A DNA stretch of 64,000 nt, from contig DLMJ01000005.1 of the NCBI GenBank assembly GCA_002479255.1, positions 8,664-72,663 of the forward strand, written 5' to 3'. The translations under genes were made by a program, and so were the position numbers. The DNA is from Candidatus Binatus soli. Lineage in GTDB: Bacteria; Desulfobacterota; Binatia; Binatales; Binataceae. Positions 11,680 through 22,078 of this stretch are shown here, piece by piece (the stretch's first letter is position 1; each line of letters opens with the position of its first letter). The notes beneath the pieces were generated by a model that was not told where the DNA came from, made no database searches, and worked only from the letters and a program-made list of their open reading frames with translations.

Positions 11680-14600
11680 TTGCGTGAGTCAGTCCATAGG
11701 GGGGATATGAACGGTCGCTCCGCCTTCAAGGTTCTGGGACTTGCCGGATTGGTGGCAATCGTGTTCGTCAGCACGCTGGCGCTCTTGGCCGGCGTGACGA
11801 TGCTTCCGGCGGCGACCACCGCCGCGCCGAGCGGCGCGCCGATTGCTCGCACTCTCGTCACGGATCAAATCGACGAGAACAATCTTGCCACGCTCGCGGG
11901 CAATACGCGTCCAGAAGCGACGGCGGCCAACGATCGCGGCCCGGTCGCGGATAGCTTTCCGATGGAGCACCTGTGGCTCCAGTTGCGGCGCCCTCCCGAG
12001 CAGGAACAGACACTCGACAAATATATCGATGGACTTACGGAACCCAAGTCGCCGAATTTCCATCAGTGGCTCACCGCAAAGCAGTTTGGAGAGCGCTACG
12101 GCCTGGCGCAGAAGGACCTGGCGGCGATCACGCGATGGCTCCAATCGCACGGCTTTACCATCAACCTGATCTATCCCAACAACGTGATCGACTTTTCCGG
12201 GACGGCCGGCCAGGTGCGCGAGGCCTTCCATACCGAGATTCACAATCTCGAGGTGAACCGTAAGAAGCACATCGCCAACATGAGCGACCCGCGGATTCCG
12301 GCCGCGCTGGCGCCGGCGGTAGTCGGAGTCGTGTCGCTGAACAACTTCATGCCGCATCCGATGAACAAGCCGCGCGCCGCATATACCTTTTCCGGCTGCG
12401 GCGATATCACAGGGACCGATTGTTGGGCGGTGGTACCCGCGGACTTGGCCACAATCTACAATCTGAATCCGCTTTTCGCGGCGGGTTATTCGGGCCAGGG
12501 ACAGACGATCGTGGTGATCGAGCCCACTGACGCGTACAACACCAACCCGGCCGGAACCGACAACACGGATTGGGATACGTTCCGCACGACCTTTGGCCTC
12601 TCAAGCGCCTACCCCAGCGGCTCTTTCACGCAGGTCCATCCGGCGCCCGGCACTGGCGGCGCCTGTAGCGATCCGGGCGTCGTCGCCAACGCCGAGTTCG
12701 AACCAATCCTGGACGCCGAATGGGCCAGCGCGGCGGCGCCTAATGCGGCCATCGAACTGGCCTCGTGCAAGAATACCACCAACTTCGGAGGTTTAATCGC
12801 CCTGCAAAACATTCTGAGCAACGGCGGCCCGGTCCCTGGGGTCGTCAGTCTCGGCTATGCCTGGTCCGAGGTGCTGGAGGGCGCGTCGGGGAACTCGAAC
12901 ATCAACGGCCTGTACCAGTTGGCGGCGTCGAGGGGCGTGTCGGTTTTCGTTGCGGCCGGAGATGGTGGCGCGGCGATGAGCGATTTCAACGAAGGAAATA
13001 ATGTCGCGCAATACGGGATCACCGTCAGTGCATTTGCCTCCACGCAGTATAATGTAGCCGTGGGGGGCACCGATTTCGGCGATACTTACGCCAACGCCCC
13101 CGCCGGCACATACTGGAGTGCGACGAACAGTTCCGACTATGGCTCAGCGTTATCTTACATCCCGGAAATTCCCTGGAATGACTCATGCGCCAGTGAGCTG
13201 ATCGCCGAGTACCTTTTTGTCAACTACGGTATCGGTGACGATTTCACTTATGGCTCGAACGGCTCCTGCAACAGCTCGATCGCCTCGCAGTACTCCCTCC
13301 TGAACACCTCCGCGGGCAGCGGCGGCCCGAGCGGATGCGCGACCGGGGCGCCATCGACGGGAGGTGTCGTCGGCGGTACCTGCCAAGGGTGGCCGAAGCC
13401 GCCATGGCAATCGGTCTTTGGCAATCCGAGCGACGGCGTGCGGGACATTCCGGACGTCTCACTGTTCGCGGCTGACGGAGTCTGGAACCATTACTACGTG
13501 GTCTGCTGGTCCGACCCGAGCCAGGAAAGCAACGGCGCAGCATCCTGTTCCGCCGCTCCCAGCGAGTGGGCTGGCGGTGGCGGAACCTCGTTCGCCGCGC
13601 CGATTATGGCCGGCATTCAGGCGCTCGTGAATCAGTATACTGCCAGCAGCCAAGGTAATCCGAATGCCACCTACTACTCGCTGGCCCAAACCGAATACGG
13701 CGCAAGCGGCAGCTCGACCTGCAACTCGGCACTCGGCAACGATGTGGCCGGCTCGTGCATCTTTTATGACGTGACCCAAGGTGACATGGACGTGCCATGC
13801 ACGGCGGGCACAAATAACTGTTACGACCCGTCAGGCACCTATGGCGTCCTGTCCACGTCGACTTCGGCGTATCAGCCCGCGTACGGAACGCAACCCGGCT
13901 GGGACTTTGCGACCGGAATCGGGACGGTGAATGCGTACAATCTTGTGAAGGCATTCGGCGCACTGGGCCCGACGCCCACCCCGACACCGACGCCAACGGC
14001 GACTGCGACCAAAACTGCGACCGTCACGCCGACCGCGACCTCGACCGCGACTCAGACCGCGACCCCGACGCCAACCACCACGGCGACGGCAACGGCAACC
14101 AAAACTGCGACCGTCACGCCGACCACAACTGCAACGGCGACAGCCACCGCCACGGCGACGGCGACCAAAACTGCGACCGTCACGCCGACCGCGACCTCGA
14201 CCGCGACTCAGACCGCGACCCCGACGCCAACCACCACGGCGACGGCAACGGCAACCAAAACTGCGACCGTCACGCCGACCACAACTGCAACGGCGACAGC
14301 CACCGCAACTTCAACGGCTACCAATACGGCGACTGCAACCGCCACTCGCACCGCCAGCCCGACCGCGACGCCCACGCCGACCGCAACTTCAACGGCTACC
14401 AAGACGGCGACTGCAACCGTCACGCCGACGGCGACCATGACGGCCACGCCGACACCGACGGCAACCGCGACGGGGGCGACTCCCACGGCCACTCGTACAG
14501 CCACCGCGACGCCGACTCCCACTGCCACTCAAACCCCGACTGCGACGCCGACTCCGACCTCGGCGAAGCTGACCATCAGTCCCCATTCGCTGGCATTCGG

Positions 14601-14916
14601 GAAAACGGTGAAAGTCGGAAATACCAGCGCGCCCAAGACGGTCACGATCACGAACGCGGGTAAGAAGAAAATACGTCTGGCGGTGAGCGTCGAGAGCTGG
14701 AACGCGTGGCCGCCGGTGTTCGCGGTCAAGTCGGAATGCGAAAAAACGCTCGCACCCGGCAAGAGCTGTAAGGTATCGGTGACCTTCACGCCGCCGGACA
14801 CGACGCGGCAGACTGGAAGCCTGATAATTTATGACAACGTGATCGGCTCGCCGCAGTCCGTTTCGCTGGCGGGAACCGGAAAGGCCAAGAAGAAAAAATC
14901 CCTACTGTCCCAATAG
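11680..14916 (+). CDS. secreted S53 (sedolisin/kumamolisin-type) serine-carboxyl peptidase with pro-domain, Thr/Ala/Pro-rich repeat linker and C-terminal beta-sandwich domain. Start may be at 11707
   Basis: N-terminal signal anchor; pro-kumamolisin-like activation domain ([12 protein letters not shown]...); S53 catalytic region with GQTIVVIEP...[18 protein letters not shown] (SGTSxAxP serine motif); long [18 protein letters not shown] linker; C-terminal domain [37 protein letters not shown]...CKVSVTFTP, resembling choice-of-anchor D / ASH-type beta-sandwich modules. Confidence 0.8.
13975..14570 (+). repeat. Low-complexity Thr/Ala/Pro-coding region inside the S53 peptidase gene. It contains a near-perfect 159-bp tandem duplication (unit ~14011-14169, copy 2 ~14170-14328) encoding a 53-aa TA-rich segment
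   Basis: Direct reading: aaaactgcgaccgtcacgccgaccgcgacctcgaccgcgactcagaccgcgaccccgacgccaaccaccacggcgacggcaacggcaaccaaaactgcgaccgtcacgccgaccacaactgcaacggcgacagccaccgc occurs twice in tandem. Confidence 0.8.
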
Positions 14917-16420: not shown

Positions 16421-16867
16421 ATGAGTACCGTCGTCTCCACAATCGCTGCCGCCGATCTGCGTCCGTTTCCCGACGTTATCCTTCGCAGCCAGTTCTTCGA
16501 GATGGTCGGGGCGCGATCGTTCTCCAGCGAGCAGCGCCTGATGCTCGCGGTGCTGGCTGACGCGATCAACGTCGTGCAGGAATTCAGCGGCTCAAAGAGC
16601 CTGCGCAAACGCAACTCGTTTAACGACGCGTGGAACTGGTTCTTCACCAAGGGCGTCACTTCTCCGTTGTCATTTGACAACGTATGCGACGCGCTCGGCA
16701 TGGACGCCCGGGGCTTGCGATGGCGGCTGTCCGAACTGGTCGCCGGCCGCGGCGGCGGTCCGCTGCGCCTGCGGCTCAAGGAAGCGAGCCGGATCCAACG
16801 CTTGACGGTTAATCGACCGCGCCGGCGCAATCCGCGCAGGATGCACCGCGTCGATCCCGCCCACTAG
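16421..16867 (+). CDS. hypothetical protein (148 aa), no recognisable family
   Basis: ORF with protein-like composition, preceded by a lower-GC divergent intergenic region shared with ispG. No motif recognised. Confidence 0.4.
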   Translation: MSTVVSTIAAADLRPFPDVILRSQFFEMVGARSFSSEQRLMLAVLADAINVVQEFSGSKSLRKRNSFNDAWNWFFTKGVTSPLSFDNVCDALGMDARGLRWRLSELVAGRGGGPLRLRLKEASRIQRLTVNRPRRRNPRRMHRVDPAH

Positions 16868-17004: not shown

Positions 17005-18216
17005 ATGGACCGTCCGCTTGAGGGCGTCAGAGTCGTCGAAGTTGCGATGTGGGTCGCAGGCCCGTCCACCACCGCCGTGATGGGCGACTGGGGCGCCGAC
17101 GTTATCAAGCTCGAAGACCCGGCCACCGGAGACCCGATTCGCGGCCTCGTTACGCGCACCATGGGCGATCCCAACGCGCGCATCCGTCCGCCGTTTGAAC
17201 TCGACAATCGCAACAAACGCTCGGTCGCCGTTGACTTGCGCCGCCCCGACGGCCACGCCTTCGCGCTCAAGCTGATCGAACACGCCGACGTCTTCGTCAC
17301 CAGCCTGCGCCTCGACGCCATCGAGCGCATGAAACTCGACTACGCGACCCTCTCCGCAAAAAATCCGCGGCTCATCTACGCGTCGATCAACGGCTACGGG
17401 CATCGCGGACCCGATCGCAATCGCCCTGCCTACGACTACGCCGCCGCGTGGGCGCGCTCGGGCCTGATGGCGACGATCGCCGAGCCGGGACAGTCGCCGC
17501 CTGGGCAGCGGCCCGCGATGATCGATCACGCCGTCGGCCTGGGTCTGGCGGGCGCAATCTCAGCCGCCCTGCTCGCACGCGAGCGTAGCGGCCGCGGCCG
17601 CGAGGTCAACATCTCGCTGTTCTCGATGGGCCTGTGGATGAACGCGTCGGATCTTACCATCGGCCTCATGACCGGCTTTTCTCCCCGATCCGAGTCGCGC
17701 ACCCAGCGCATTAATCCGCTGTGGAGTTCCTATCGATGCGCCGACGCGCGATGGATTTACTTCGTGATGATTCAGAGCGATCGCTATTGGCCGGATTTCT
17801 GCCTCGCGCTCGGCAAACCGGATTGGCTGAACGACCCGCGTTTCAAGGATTCAGTCGCGCGCGCGCAAAACTGCGCCGCGCTCACAGACGAAATAGATCG
17901 CGCGATTGCGGCGAGGAGCTGCGACGATTGGGCGCCGATTTTCGATCGCCACAATCTCATCTGGGCCCCTGTGCGCACCGACGCCGAAGTGCTCGACGAT
18001 CCGCAGGCCGAAGCTATCGGCGCTTTCGCCGCCGTGGACCATCCGAATATTCCCGGATGCCGCGTCGTGAACAGCCCCGTCGAGTTTGGCGACTCCCACC
18101 CACTGCCCCATCGTGCGGCCCCCGAACTGGGCCAGCATACCGAGGAAGTCGCGCTTGAAATGGGCCTGACGTGGGACGAGATCGCGCGTCTCAAAGCCTC
18201 CGGCGCCTTGGGTTAG
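17005..18216 (+). CDS. CoA-transferase family III protein (CaiB/BaiF/formyl-CoA transferase family)
   Basis: N-terminal LEGVRVVEVAMWVAGPSTTAVMGDWGADVIKLE and IxSLRLD...Y, typical of family III CoA transferases; 403 aa. Confidence 0.8.
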   Translation: MDRPLEGVRVVEVAMWVAGPSTTAVMGDWGADVIKLEDPATGDPIRGLVTRTMGDPNARIRPPFELDNRNKRSVAVDLRRPDGHAFALKLIEHADVFVTSLRLDAIERMKLDYATLSAKNPRLIYASINGYGHRGPDRNRPAYDYAAAWARSGLMATIAEPGQSPPGQRPAMIDHAVGLGLAGAISAALLARERSGRGREVNISLFSMGLWMNASDLTIGLMTGFSPRSESRTQRINPLWSSYRCADARWIYFVMIQSDRYWPDFCLALGKPDWLNDPRFKDSVARAQNCAALTDEIDRAIAARSCDDWAPIFDRHNLIWAPVRTDAEVLDDPQAEAIGAFAAVDHPNIPGCRVVNSPVEFGDSHPLPHRAAPELGQHTEEVALEMGLTWDEIARLKASGALG

Positions 18217-18317
18217 ATTTCCATCTGTACGATGCACCAAACCCGCTACTGACAGGCGATTTTGAACTTCGTGTGCAATCAAAACGCCATTATAAAACTG
18301 CACTTTCCTGAAAAGGT

Positions 18318-18347
18318 TTGACTCTGATGAACGCGCCTCCGTATGAT
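18318..18347 (+). promoter_or_regulatory. near-consensus sigma70-type promoter (TTGACT - 18 nt - TATGAT) upstream of the 18380 cassette
   Basis: Read directly: ttgact ctgatgaacgcgcctccg tatgat. Followed by a 6-bp inverted repeat cctccg...cggagg overlapping the -10 region and transcript start. Confidence 0.4.
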
Positions 18348-18379
18348 CTTTATCACCTGTCAGCGGAGGTCGCCTGCTC

Positions 18380-18910
18380 GTGCGAATGATTGTTCCTCCT
18401 GTCGCTCATCGCCGCGAAATCGATCGCAACCTCGCCGAATTTTTCCGCGGCCATCGCGCCGCGCATTTCAACCGCGCCATTTCCTCGATGTGCCGATACT
18501 TCAAACTGCGCCGCCCGCGTGTCAAATGGTTCGAGTATATCGATTGGGGCAAGACCGCCGGCCGCACCTACGAAGACGGCCGCATCCATCTCGTGCATCC
18601 CGAAAACTGGAAACGCGGACGCGTCTATTTCAGCGAGCGCCTGTGGATTCAAATGATCTACCACGAGATGGGTCATTTCCTGTTCTGGTCTGACGCCGAG
18701 CGCAAGGCCGACCTGTTCTCGCGCCGGATGGTGACCGGGCTTAAAGTCCCCGGCCGCCGTAGTGCATCGCGCTCGCGCATGCGGGCGGGAATCTCGAGCA
18801 CGCGTCGCGCTGCAAATCGCGTCCGCAAGCGCCGCCCGCGTATTTCGATCGCACGAAAATCGAGGCGCTCTGCGCGGATCGACGCTCGCAAATCTCGCCG
18901 GGTTGCCTGA
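18380..18910 (+). CDS. hypothetical HExxH-motif protein (putative zinc metallopeptidase-like) with an extremely basic Arg/Ser/Lys-rich C-terminal tail
   Basis: Contains IYHEMGHFLFW (HExxH) about 105 aa in. C-terminal ~60 aa are poly-basic (RRSASRSRMRAGISSTRRAANRVRKRRPRISIARKSRRSARIDARKSRR). Its stop overlaps the next start by 1 nt (TGATG). Confidence 0.5.
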   Translation: MRMIVPPVAHRREIDRNLAEFFRGHRAAHFNRAISSMCRYFKLRRPRVKWFEYIDWGKTAGRTYEDGRIHLVHPENWKRGRVYFSERLWIQMIYHEMGHFLFWSDAERKADLFSRRMVTGLKVPGRRSASRSRMRAGISSTRRAANRVRKRRPRISIARKSRRSARIDARKSRRVA

Positions 18911-19461
18911 TGCCGCAAAAGCCCAACGTCGAAAACCGCTGGTGGGTCGAAACCACCTTCAAGAAACCCAAAAAGGCCAAGTCCGAAACTGAGATGCCGC
19001 AGTTGCCGGTCGCGATGGCCTTTTACCAGGTCGCGCGCGATTACGATCAGGATCGCGCCAAGGAAGACCTGACCGACAACAACCTGCGCGTCGCGCGCGA
19101 GGCCAATCCTCCGCAGGGAGATTGGGCCTACGTCGCGATGACCGAGCAGCATGCGCCGCCCAATGTCATCAAGCGCGTCAAGGACGAGTTTCGCCTCCCG
19201 CGCGAGGCGCGCGGCATCGTAATCGATCACGGGCGCGTCGTGCGCCTGCTGATTTGCGGCCCGCAGCTCGAGGACTGGATGATCGACATCACGCTCGGCG
19301 AGGAGCCGTCGGTCGATGCGTACGTATGGTCCGTGATGCATCGCGAGCGAATCTTCCGCCGCGCCGAGGACGCGCTGCGCCAGGCGCGCAAATGGGCCGT
19401 CAACCTGCTCCAGTTCCCTCCCCAGCGCGACGAGCCCTTCCGCGGCTCCCTGCTGGTCTAG
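18910..19461 (+). CDS. hypothetical protein (183 aa) translationally coupled to the HExxH protein
   Basis: Diverse amino-acid composition with W/Y/K/E-rich segments (NRWWVETTFKKPKK...), unlike the R/L/A-rich antisense ORF 18673-19509. No family recognised. Confidence 0.45.
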   Translation: MPQKPNVENRWWVETTFKKPKKAKSETEMPQLPVAMAFYQVARDYDQDRAKEDLTDNNLRVAREANPPQGDWAYVAMTEQHAPPNVIKRVKDEFRLPREARGIVIDHGRVVRLLICGPQLEDWMIDITLGEEPSVDAYVWSVMHRERIFRRAEDALRQARKWAVNLLQFPPQRDEPFRGSLLV

Positions 19462-19523
19462 CCAAGCTTCGCGTTCAGGGTAAGCTCGATTGTGGACTTG
19501 ACCCTCCACCGCTCGGTTGCGCC

Positions 19524-20669
19524 ATGAAATACCTGTCGCTCGTGCTCATAAACCTGACCCGCAACAAGCGGCGCACGATTCTTACCACGCTGTCGATCAC
19601 CGTCTCGGTATTCATCTTCGCGTCCCTGATCAGCCTGCCGGGACTGCTCAACCAGGTCCTGCGCGACCGCGCCAACTCGCTGCGCCTGATCTGTCACAGC
19701 AAGGCGGGCTTCTACTATATGTTGCCCGAAGCGTATCGCCGGCAGATCGAAAAAGTTGCACACGTGGAGGCAGTGGCCGGCTACAGCGTCTTCATGGGAA
19801 CCTACCGCGATCCGAACGAGCAGATCGGCATCCTCGCCACCGACGACGATCATATCCCCGAAATCTTTCCCGATTGGGAAGTCAGCGCGGAAGCCGAACG
19901 CGAATTCAAAAGCATGCGCACCGCAGGCCTCGTCGGAGCCACCTTGATGAAGATTTACGGCTGGAAAGTCGGCGACACGATCATGCTGCGCGGTACGGTG
20001 TATCCGGTCGATCTGCAACTGACAATTGTGGGCGTGCTGAACGAGAAAGCCGCAGGGCCTCAAATTATTTTCAGGCGCGACTACATGGAAGAACTGCTGG
20101 GCAGGCCCGGCACCGCGAACCTGTTCTGGGTGAAAATAGACCGCTCGCAATCGGCGCCCGAGGTGATCGCCGCAATCGATGAAATGTTCGCCAATTCGGC
20201 GCACGAGACGGCCACCGAAACCGAAGTCGCGCTGATCAAGAGCGAGATGGCCGGCAATCTTGCCCTTCTGGTTAATGGCGCAAAATTTCTTGCGGTGATC
20301 GTGATCTTCACGATCGCGCTGGTCGCCGTCAACACGGCTGCGATGGCGGTGCGCGAACGGCGCCACGAGATGGCGGTGATGCGCGCGATTGGATTCACGC
20401 GCAACTCGATCATTGCGCGAATCCTCGTCGAGGGACTGGTCGTCGGCATGGCCGGCGGTGTCCTCGGATGCGCCTTGGCGCTCCTGGGATTCGAACTGTT
20501 GCCGCACGTTTCCGGAGCGCTCGGTCCGCTCGCGCTCTCCCTGACGCTATCGCCGCGAATCGTTGCCTACAGCTTCATGATCGCCGCCCTGATCGGAGCA
20601 GCCAGCGGGTTCATACCTGCGACTCTGGCCACCCGCGGCGACATTTCGACCGAACTCCGCGCCGTGTAA
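19524..20669 (+). CDS. ABC transporter permease, FtsX-like (MacB/LolE family); no ATPase gene adjacent
   Basis: MKYLSLVLINLTRNKRRTILTTLSITVSVFIF N-terminal TM, large periplasmic domain, then C-terminal 3-TM FtsX block (MAVMRAIGFTRNSIIARILVEGLVVGMAGGVLG). ATG at 19524; the longer ORF from 19122 is an upstream artefact. Confidence 0.75.
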   Translation: MKYLSLVLINLTRNKRRTILTTLSITVSVFIFASLISLPGLLNQVLRDRANSLRLICHSKAGFYYMLPEAYRRQIEKVAHVEAVAGYSVFMGTYRDPNEQIGILATDDDHIPEIFPDWEVSAEAEREFKSMRTAGLVGATLMKIYGWKVGDTIMLRGTVYPVDLQLTIVGVLNEKAAGPQIIFRRDYMEELLGRPGTANLFWVKIDRSQSAPEVIAAIDEMFANSAHETATETEVALIKSEMAGNLALLVNGAKFLAVIVIFTIALVAVNTAAMAVRERRHEMAVMRAIGFTRNSIIARILVEGLVVGMAGGVLGCALALLGFELLPHVSGALGPLALSLTLSPRIVAYSFMIAALIGAASGFIPATLATRGDISTELRAV

Positions 20670-20700: not shown

Positions 20701-21945
20701 TTAATCAGGCTGCGATTTACCAGAATCGAGGCAACACTTCTTGTATTTCAGGCCGCTGCCACAGGGGCAAGGGTCGTTCCGCCCTGTTCGAGGAGAGGCT
20801 TCGCCATCCTCGGAGCGCAGATGATCCATGAGCCGTTCCACTGGTACGCCTGACCGCATCAGCGACGCGATCTTCCGCAGGCGTGGGCGGCTATGGGTGA
20901 AAAACTTTTTCAGGCCCGGGCAAAGATAGTTAAGACCCTGTTCGCCGTCGGGTGTCCGGGCAAACCGGTCCTTTGGACACCCGCCATTGCACGACTTCAG
21001 GACCTCGCAATCCCGGCAGTATTGGGGCAGTCCGTCCCGCTTCTTGCGTCCGAATTCGCGCTGCGCCGGGTCCTCCAGTATTTCCACGAGCGGTGTTTCG
21101 AGAATGTTCCCGATGCGGTGCTCCGGATCGACAAAATGATCGCAGGAGTAGAAATCTCCGTTATGCTCGACGACCACGACATCGCCGCAGGTCTCCTTGA
21201 AAATGCACAAAGCATGCTCCACCCCGAGCAAGGGTCTGAGCGCCTCATCGAAGTTCTGGATGGCGATCCGGCCGATATCGTGCCTGAACCACTCGTCGAA
21301 AATCGTGCACAGGAACTCTCCGTAGGCTTCTGCCGGCGCCGTCTCCGCGCTTACCCCGCTCCCGCCTTGCCGCGCGACCAGCGGAAGGAATTGCAGGAAC
21401 TCCACGCCGAGCTCCTTGAAAAAGCGATAAACCGCAGTCGGCTGCCCGACGTTCCCACGATGCACGACGCACAGCACGTCGCATGGAATCCGGTAGCGCT
21501 TCAAGAGCCGGATGGACTGGATCACCCGCTTGTGGGTCGTACCGCCGCCCTTGGTCACGCGATAGCGGTCGTGGAGCGCCTTCGGTCCGTCGATGCTGAT
21601 GCCGACCTGGAAGCGTTCCGCGGCGAGGAAGCGGCACCATTCGTCGTCGATCAGCGTGCCGTTGGTCTGAATGCCATTGAGGATCTGCCGTCCCGCAGGT
21701 CGGTGCTTGCGCTGGAGCTCGACGATTCGGCGGAAATAATCGAGCCCTAGGATGGTCGGCTCGCCGCCGTGCCACTCGAAGAAAATCATGTCCTTAGGGC
21801 AGGCCTCGATGTGCTGGACGATGTAGCGCTCCAGCAGATCATCGGTCATCCGAAGCGATCCGCCGTTCGGATACAGGGCCGACTTGTCGAGGTAATAGCA
21901 GTAGCTACAGTCGAGGTTGCAGACCGCGCCCGCCGGTTTTGCCAT
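20701..21945 (-). CDS. radical SAM/SPASM-domain enzyme of the anaerobic sulfatase-maturating enzyme (anSME/AslB) family with a C-terminal SEC-C zinc-binding motif
   Basis: CNLDCSYCYY (CxxxCxxC radical SAM cluster), GGEPTIL, Cys-rich SPASM-type C-terminal half (CDHF...CRDCEVLKSCNGGCP), and terminal NDPCPCGSGLKYKKCC (SEC-C motif). Confidence 0.8.
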   Translation of the reverse strand: MAKPAGAVCNLDCSYCYYLDKSALYPNGGSLRMTDDLLERYIVQHIEACPKDMIFFEWHGGEPTILGLDYFRRIVELQRKHRPAGRQILNGIQTNGTLIDDEWCRFLAAERFQVGISIDGPKALHDRYRVTKGGGTTHKRVIQSIRLLKRYRIPCDVLCVVHRGNVGQPTAVYRFFKELGVEFLQFLPLVARQGGSGVSAETAPAEAYGEFLCTIFDEWFRHDIGRIAIQNFDEALRPLLGVEHALCIFKETCGDVVVVEHNGDFYSCDHFVDPEHRIGNILETPLVEILEDPAQREFGRKKRDGLPQYCRDCEVLKSCNGGCPKDRFARTPDGEQGLNYLCPGLKKFFTHSRPRLRKIASLMRSGVPVERLMDHLRSEDGEASPRTGRNDPCPCGSGLKYKKCCLDSGKSQPD

Positions 21946-22078
21946 CACCTGGAATTCCCGCGAAGCTGCCACCATTCAGTGATACACTCCCCACCTGGCG
22001 TGAGCTATCAAAAAAGAGGCAGTTGAATCTGCACGTCGGGCGACAAACAGGGACGCGGTAGCGCGCCGATTCTGTCTG

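Follow-up and report, generated by a model that had tools for sequence, protein, structure and literature searches.

A two-gene operon conserved across Binatia encodes a predicted minimal zincin with a polybasic tail and a Binatia-only partner protein

The 64-kb stretch of Candidatus Binatus soli DNA analysed here, referred to as the window, carries at positions 18318–19461 a pair of overlapping open reading frames (ORFs), ORF1 and ORF2, preceded by a near-consensus promoter. ORF1 (18380–18910, plus strand) has a GTG start and encodes a protein of 176 residues (WP_428127206.1), and ORF2 (18910–19461, plus strand) has an ATG start and encodes a protein of 183 residues (WP_428127208.1); the RefSeq name of both is “hypothetical protein [Candidatus Binatus soli]”. 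The predicted sigma-70-type promoter spans 18318–18347 on the plus strand and is composed of a −35 hexamer, TTGACT (18318–18323), an 18-nucleotide spacer, and a −10 hexamer, TATGAT (18342–18347), with 10 of 12 consensus matches. A Shine-Dalgarno sequence, GGAGG (18365–18369, plus strand), lies 10 nucleotides before the GTG start at 18380. The two genes meet in the sequence TGATG (18908–18912, plus strand), in which the TGA stop of ORF1 (18908–18910) and the ATG start of ORF2 (18910–18912) have one base in common, an overlap of the kind that would couple their translation. ORF1 itself is modular. Residues 1–122 (18380–18745) constitute a minimal zincin-like domain, as delimited by AlphaFold2 and the family alignment, which contains the motif HEMGH at residues 95–99 (18662–18676) and, as a candidate third metal ligand identified by its invariance in the alignment, E107 (18698–18700). 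Residues 123–176 and the stop codon (18746–18910) make up an Arg/Ser-rich polybasic tail, assigned as disordered on the basis of its charge and its predicted local distance difference test (pLDDT) values. The promoter, the coupled gene pair, the HEMGH motif, and the basic tail had all been described in a first-pass annotation of this DNA, and each is found where that annotation placed it.

ORF1 and ORF2 are both genuine genes, read in the plus frame and under purifying selection. Their GC content by codon position (0.61/0.43/0.73 in the N-terminal domain, or N-domain, of ORF1 and 0.68/0.40/0.85 in ORF2) resembles that of bona fide neighbouring genes, and in comparison with 17 collinear relatives, third positions of the plus frame account for 67% of the substitutions in the N-domain, 54% in the tail, and 61% in ORF2. 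Database homologues at E ≤ 1e-3 number 1397 for ORF1 and 246 for ORF2, and the source names given are those of Candidatus Binatus or Binataceae, a single metagenome-assembled genome (MAG) labelled “Candidatus Acidoferrum” being the exception. The first-pass annotation had raised the prospect that a minus-strand frame of 278 residues, open from 18673 to 19509, might be the conserved gene in place of ORF1 and ORF2. There is next to no chance that this is so. The GC content of the minus-strand ORF by codon position (0.79/0.46/0.67) is the mirror of that of ORF2, Pfam, NCBIfam, PHROGs, and PADLOC give no match to it, and the plus frame has hundreds of homologues in which lengths and start codons are kept. 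The mirror composition and the concentration of substitutions at plus-frame third positions together mark the minus-strand ORF as an artefact, and the reading is refuted.

The near-consensus promoter had also been singled out as rare in this GC-rich background. No other site on the two strands of the window equals the TTGACT-18-TATGAT element in reaching 10 of 12 matches, as that claim would have it; shuffled 64-kb sequence yields approximately 1.7 promoter-like sites at the same threshold, so the hexamer match by itself proves nothing. The argument that the promoter is real comes from its conservation across related loci. Of the 79 Binataceae loci whose sequence extends far enough upstream, 77 have the pattern TTGAC-N(16-19)-TAnnnT 25–66 nucleotides before the ORF1 start, where shuffles lead one to expect 0.44. 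The spacer is exactly 18 nucleotides in 76 of these 77 footprinted loci; TTGACT is the −35 element in 65, and TATGAT the −10 element in 64. GGAG(G) lies 5′ of the ORF1 start in 72 of the 79 loci, and the position of the start codon is kept, with ATG replacing GTG in four distant loci. In Binatia outside the Binataceae, TTGAC[TA]-N17-TATGGT is observed at the equivalent place in loci L186 and L188, and a scan for the same pattern upstream of ORF1 in L190 gives no match. By its hexamers, spacing, placement, and conservation, the element is thus assigned, at the level of sequence, as a sigma-70-type promoter. Approximately 20–40 nucleotides 5′ of the −35 hexamer is an A+T-rich block, AATCAAAACGCCATTATAAAACT (18277–18299, plus strand), with a counterpart, AATCAAACGnCGGTATAAA, that keeps the same position in the genus Binatus and is not conserved in Binataceae further removed. 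The block may serve as an UP element or as an operator.

AlphaFold2 models the N-domain of ORF1 with pLDDT values that are mostly 85–95 over residues 8–110. The predicted fold comprises two helices (residues 8–24 and 27–41), two strands (48–51 and 69–72), a helix that carries the HExxH motif (86–104), and a last helix (106–121) that begins near E107, so that the motif and the candidate third ligand are placed on consecutive helices. Of 120 homologues among the matches listed, 119 contain HExxH, the exception being an N-terminally truncated fragment, and so do all members of a diverse family alignment of 69 sequences with 25–68% identity. The sole invariant residues of that alignment are H95, E96, H99, and E107, which together define the pattern HExxHx7E; P6, P46, P74, W89, and A110 are nearly invariant. 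The first-pass annotation, which divided ORF1 into a small HExxH domain and a polybasic tail, is therefore supported on this point, and its caution that homologues might fail to conserve the motif is answered by these counts. D105 was the residue first considered as the third ligand, and it was rejected, being conserved in close relatives only. The invariance of HExxHx7E is plausibly the pattern of an active zincin with Glu as the third ligand, and the restriction of family-wide invariance to the HExxH residues and E107 implies a competent zinc hydrolase, as far as can be predicted from an alignment.

A profile search with the N-domain against 1.84 billion representative proteins (E ≤ 1e-3, with clustering at 50% identity) returns a family of 155 clusters, most of which are stand-alone proteins of 115–135 residues. 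No Pfam, NCBIfam, PHROG, or PADLOC model covers ORF1. On these sequence criteria, the N-domain is a predicted minimal zincin of approximately 120 residues that belongs to a small, rare, and undescribed family. The domain is strongly basic, with a net charge of +12, and whole ORF1 has an isoelectric point (pI) of 11.9 and a net charge of +33.

The remaining charge resides in the tail. The 19 Arg and 3 Lys of residues 123–176, set against a single acidic residue, give a net charge of +21; the tail also has 9 Ser and contains no Cys or His; AlphaFold2 predicts residues 123–175 to be disordered (pLDDT < 50). All Binataceae homologues have such a tail, 40–60 residues in length (mean 51), with 40% Arg plus Lys and less than one acidic residue. 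Its sequence changes fast, and the 54% third-position bias noted above shows that it is coding despite this divergence. In the ORF1 proteins of non-Binataceae Binatia (L186, L188, and L190), which are 135–147 residues long, the tail is short, weakly basic, and ends in R[KR]AA, and it is absent from phage homologues and from those labelled Verrucomicrobiae. The long tail is thus an elaboration of the Binataceae and not part of the core module, since other Binatia retain the pair with a short tail.

ORF2 is modelled by AlphaFold2 with moderate confidence as an alpha-beta-alpha-beta5-alpha core at residues 45–170 (pLDDT 75–88), with both ends predicted to be disordered. The disordered ends are conserved: an RWW motif and LP.LPVAM are found at the N terminus and the peptide PP.RDEPFRG at the C terminus. 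These peptides look like binding or recognition elements, a suggestion drawn from the model. Residues invariant in both Binatia clades of ORF2 (the second of which is described below) are R10, W11, W12, Q47, A50, L54, D56, N58, P67, and G70, together with W72, G102, D106, G108, R109, R112, G117, E146, F149, and A155. H107 and C116, in the sequence DHGR...CGP, are invariant in Binataceae and replaced in the second clade. A catalytic Cys/His pair is therefore ruled out, and ORF2 appears to be non-enzymatic, with no conserved nucleophile or metal-binding set. Its pI of 7.9 and net charge of +1 likewise rule out a DNA mimic or an acidic chaperone.

The first-pass annotation recognised nothing in the second product, and that is borne out. 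Pfam, NCBIfam, PHROGs, and PADLOC contain no match to ORF2, per-member Pfam scans give noise, and there is no sequence match in the PDB. The best Foldseek match is PsiB (PDB 3NCT), which is not significant (E = 0.36, probability 0.77, TM-scores of 0.37 and 0.47). A PsiB-like ORF2 was dropped, given that hhalign of alignment A7 with F-plasmid PsiB returns a probability of 0.15%. Weaker Foldseek matches, also not significant, include several ribosome hibernation factors (YfiA/HPF) at a probability of approximately 0.2. ORF2 is a predicted alpha/beta protein found only in Binatia.

With each GTDB species represented by one genome, a scan finds 320 stretches that encode a relative of ORF1, of which the best 80 were examined. 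Nearly all of these 80 are from MAGs labelled Binataceae, Binatus, or “delta proteobacterium”. ORF2 lies 3′ of ORF1 in every locus whose contig reaches far enough. The one-base overlap of the two genes is present in approximately 45 of the 80; in the rest, which are more distant, the genes are separated by gaps of 4–86 nucleotides. One long-read MAG (L025, 6001–7083) has ORF1 running into ORF2 as a single frame of 360 residues, probably an indel or an assembly error rather than a natural fusion, and L091 and L092 are likewise full of frameshifts. In L047 (4731–6949), and probably in L068 (6001–7633), a gene for an FtsX-like protein approximately 47% identical to that of the window is placed between ORF1 and ORF2.

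The recurrent gene order in Binataceae is ispG (minus strand), a gene for a hypothetical protein of 148 residues, a coenzyme A (CoA)-transferase gene, ORF1, ORF2, and an FtsX-type permease gene. In the window, the permease gene (19524–20669) starts 62 nucleotides after ORF2, and no gene for an ATP-binding cassette ATPase is found beside it. The CoA-transferase gene (17005–18216 in the window) is missing from L007, L031, L052, and L064, where the 148-residue gene adjoins ORF1 directly upstream. A second clade of ORF2, labelled Candidatus Binatia, comprises 334 proteins at 34–40% identity, encoded directly after an ORF1-like gene; the pair loci outside the Binataceae are L186 (3579–4555), L188 (3558–4555), and L190 (3589–4564). 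The neighbourhood of the second clade differs, with BamA, AhpC, and Lgt (minus strand) preceding ORF1 and ORF2. That the pair stays adjacent in two different gene contexts argues for a functional link between ORF1 and ORF2. The pair is a class-wide, vertically inherited chromosomal operon of Binatia.

Nothing around the pair resembles a mobile element. Its base composition is normal, and near it there are no integrases, repeats, tRNA genes, or flanking mobile-element genes; PADLOC reports no defence system, and no RNA family is detected on either strand of the window at Rfam gathering thresholds. The idea of a genomic island was dropped on the normal base composition and the synteny. In agreement with the first-pass annotation, which had remarked that no gene for a helix-turn-helix (HTH) repressor is adjacent, no HTH is found in ORF2 or in the products of the neighbouring genes.

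The zincin domain extends beyond Binatia in two directions. Phage members of the domain family were anticipated in the first-pass annotation and are found here. On the phage-like contig L081, a mini-zincin gene is located among genes for ERF, a PD-(D/E)XK protein, Band_7, a Holliday-junction resolvase (phrog_1770), a single-stranded DNA-binding protein (SSB), dCMP deaminase, and ribonucleotide reductase. Mini-zincins are also present on five IMG/VR contigs, in one of which the gene adjoins that for a DNA polymerase exonuclease subunit. The IMG/VR loci were located with two sub-alignments, the diverse alignment A4 being too divergent for pattern scanning. A tblastn search of GenBank phages with two family members gives no match, and no PHROG covers the family. 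In three AT-rich IMG/VR contigs, the mini-zincin is directly followed by a conserved protein of 91–106 residues (L088, 6386–6664; L089, 6372–6692; L090, 6392–6667) with the pattern MPYIK..GELNY..LECCKLELYRR..PYED..NGDVY, and the same three contigs encode a phrog_11528 protein, to which no function is assigned, a few genes upstream.

The other direction is an abundant soil lineage with a GC content of approximately 0.54. Its homologue lacks the tail, is 125–129 residues long, and is 59–66% identical to the Binatus N-domain; the corresponding cluster at 90% identity comprises 1073 members, with Verrucomicrobiae as the label of one NCBI MAG. In 80 loci (L106–L185; for example, L140, 5001–5381), the gene lies immediately 5′ of ileS or of a related class-I synthetase-like gene, and ORF2 occurs within 5 kb in none of the 80. 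Fifteen neighbours of phage and metagenomic homologues were compared with ORF2 by hhalign, and none is related to it. Relative to the zincin domain, ORF2 is thus an addition that spans Binatia.

Placement of ORF1 among known proteases is less direct. The window ORF1 has no match in Pfam or NCBIfam at E ≤ 1, and the SprT-like threshold (PF10263) is not reached. When 51 homologues are scanned singly with Pfam, 16 give weak SprT-like matches (best E = 0.013) and 20 give weak matches to Peptidase_M10. Sequence-profile searches of the PDB with alignments A1, A2, A4, and A7 return nothing besides the SprT domain of human Spartan (6mdx), which is the best match for A4 and is not significant (E = 0.12). 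The 6mdx alignment is in register, with a strand before a G-x-x-G turn, a second strand, and the HExxH helix. A SprT alignment of 13 sequences (Escherichia coli YggI and 12 plasmid or phage homologues) is paired by hhalign with A4 at 79% probability (E = 1.6e-5, 85 columns); the controls give 0.1% for the reversed alignment and 0.2% for ORF2. As judged from sequence, the “minigluzincin-like” proteases SprT, Spartan, and Wss1 are the nearest known kind, membership in which is not established. Of the families proposed for ORF1 in the first-pass annotation, then, SprT-like is the nearest, with weak matches, and M78 (ImmA/IrrE) finds no backing, as there is no match to PF06114.

The reading that we tentatively prefer, while granting it distinctly less than an even chance, is that ORF1 is a zincin protease held on nucleic acid or another polyanion and that ORF2 is its dedicated regulator, adaptor, or pseudosubstrate. 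The conserved sigma-70 promoter and the strong ribosome-binding site would drive the production of two cytoplasmic proteins from an operon of housekeeping type. The zincin would act as a protease, and its basic N-domain surface and polybasic tail would keep it bound to a polyanion, for which DNA or RNA is the most probable candidate. Such an arrangement would be reminiscent of Spartan, with its low-complexity basic region, and of Wss1 and GCNA, which have disordered regions. Translational coupling would make ORF2 in fixed proportion to the protease, to which it may bind, the conserved disordered N- and C-terminal peptides being the likely contact points. A link to DNA is supported by the tail-less phage homologues, which are found in modules for DNA replication and recombination (ERF, nuclease, resolvase, SSB, and polymerase exonuclease subunit). 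A bolder version, to which we give much less credence, is that HExxHx7E defines an undescribed zincin family common to phage replication modules and two soil lineages, its domain having been joined in Binatia to a lineage-specific partner and in Binataceae also to the polybasic disordered tail, so that the pair would be a bacterial, nucleic-acid-tethered counterpart of Spartan, Wss1, and GCNA with a new kind of regulator.

Several observations weigh against a tethered protease with a dedicated regulator. The hhalign probability for SprT falls to 2.6% once the HExxH helix is removed, so the SprT link depends mostly on that helix. Foldseek searches of the PDB and BFVD with the confident ORF1 model retrieve no zincin and no significant match. 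The third His ligand of SprT and Spartan (“HG.E[FW]”) and their zinc ribbon or zinc-binding domain (ZBD) are absent, and there is no conserved His or Cys after H99. The near-consensus promoter and strong ribosome-binding site suggest abundant expression, which would be untypical of repair proteases. The long basic tail is missing from the non-Binataceae Binatia, which still have ORF2, and from the 59–66%-identical homologue beside ileS; because it is missing outside the Binataceae, tethering by the tail cannot be the core mechanism of the family. The association with phage contexts is based on just a few contigs. Protease activity, nucleic-acid binding, and an ORF1–ORF2 complex are accordingly put forward as proposals that we infer from sequence.

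Part of the same evidence can be arranged differently. The strict co-inheritance and translational coupling of the two genes, the highly conserved yet disordered termini of ORF2 (RWW, LP.LPVAM, and PP.RDEPFRG), and its lack of a catalytic signature would also suit a protease–substrate switch, in which ORF1 cleaves ORF2 within a disordered terminal peptide and so releases or activates it under stress, comparable to cleavage of a repressor or anti-factor by zincins of the ImmA/IrrE type. Such a switch is unlikely, in our estimation: ORF2 has no HTH or other DNA-binding domain and no sigma or anti-sigma domain, the pair lies outside mobile elements and has no M78/ImmA match, and some loci that encode a close homologue of the zincin lack ORF2. 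The extreme basicity of ORF1 invites comparison with ribosomal proteins, and ORF1 may be a peptidase associated with the ribosome or RNA, its Arg-rich tail docking on ribosomal RNA like a ribosomal-protein extension while it trims ribosomal proteins or nascent chains, ORF2 serving as its cofactor. High expression, to which the strength and conservation of the promoter and ribosome-binding site point, fits this arrangement, as do the position of the close tail-less homologue, which is always upstream of ileS, a translation gene, or of a synthetase-like gene in the 80 metagenomic loci, and the weak YfiA/HPF matches of ORF2. These matches are not significant, however, no ribosomal or translation gene lies beside the pair in Binatia, and the phage homologues are placed in DNA modules and not in translation modules, so that we consider a ribosomal role rather improbable.

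The remaining alternative is the one suggested in the first-pass annotation, which likened the pair to toxin–antitoxin, anti-sigma, or phage-repressor modules. A small overlapping two-gene unit with its own promoter, encoding a member of a zincin family that also occurs on phage contigs, does have the outline of a toxin–antitoxin pair, an anti-phage defence system, or a domesticated phage regulatory cassette. The pair is nevertheless present in essentially every sampled Binataceae genome in the same synteny and is inherited across the class, its base composition is normal, neither PADLOC, Pfam, nor PHROGs gives a match, and integrases, repeats, and tRNA genes are missing nearby. Conserved chromosomal synteny of this kind indicates that the pair is not a mobile or toxin–antitoxin module, and the suggestion is very improbable and is set aside.

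Three other genes of the region were noted in passing. The 148-residue hypothetical protein (16421–16867, plus strand) is conserved, has no Pfam match, and has a basic C terminus; in most Binataceae, its gene keeps its place between ispG and the promoter of ORF1. Further downstream, on the minus strand (20701–21975), is a gene for a radical-SAM/SPASM protein with a C-terminal SEC-C motif, which is also present in L001, L003, L005, L009, and L025; its occurrence in only some close Binatus relatives indicates a variable insertion in an otherwise conserved synteny. Upstream, on the plus strand (11680–14916), is a gene for a protein of 1078 residues with a pro-kumamolisin (sedolisin) activation domain and C-terminal Ig-like domains (Cep192_D4 / HYDIN-VesB-like).

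To our knowledge, the bacterial proteases dedicated to DNA–protein crosslinks are not well defined. Should the tailed ORF1 of Binataceae depend on nucleic acid, the pair would offer a simple bacterial model, with two components, for the restraint of such proteases; if its function is another, such as a role at the ribosome or a substrate switch, it would still be a class-wide conserved operon of uncultured soil bacteria. As putative metallopeptidase scaffolds go, the zincin domain is one of the smallest, and a rare one; even so, Binatia and an abundant soil lineage conserve it as a chromosomal gene. The pair is a modest lead for biochemistry and not a breakthrough.

Comparison with known systems places ORF1 at varying distances from four groups of small metalloproteases. 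Similar to ImmA/IrrE (M78), ORF1 is a small HExxH protein encoded beside a partner protein; unlike in those systems, M78 is not matched, the partner is not an HTH protein, and the pair lies outside mobile elements. The minigluzincins (abylysin and proabylysin, PDB 4JIU) provide a soluble catalytic scaffold of approximately 100–120 residues, a minimal metallopeptidase that has served as a modelling template for WLM and SprT domains (PMC4559962). ORF1 has a domain of similar size. It differs in that it matches no PDB chain of this group by sequence at E up to 10 and has no Foldseek match, and in the placement of its Glu just 8 residues after HExxH. SprT (E. coli YggI; PF10263) shares with ORF1 the N-terminal helices, the G-x-x-A-G ... 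I-x-L-x-P strands, and the HExxH helix, and large phages and plasmids, too, carry homologues of SprT. Two features of YggI have no equivalent in ORF1, namely the His ligand of “PHG.EW” and the Cys4 zinc ribbon at the C terminus.

The resemblance in overall layout is to Spartan, Wss1, and GCNA. In Spartan, a low-complexity basic region that binds DNA follows the protease domain and the ZBD (PMC7534798), and GCNA, Wss1, and Spartan all combine small protease domains of the minigluzincin type with large disordered regions (PMC5098910, PMC4559962). ORF1 is similarly composed of a small HExxH zincin followed by a fast-evolving, low-complexity or disordered region, which is basic and DNA-binding in the case of Spartan. 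The main differences are the third ligand, for which the candidate in ORF1 is a Glu at +8 and which is a distal His in these proteins, and the accessory elements, as ORF1 has no zinc-binding subdomain and no SHP, PIP, UBZ, or SIM motifs. Spartan, Wss1, and GCNA are eukaryotic proteases of DNA–protein crosslinks, whereas ORF1 is bacterial and is encoded together with a dedicated partner gene.

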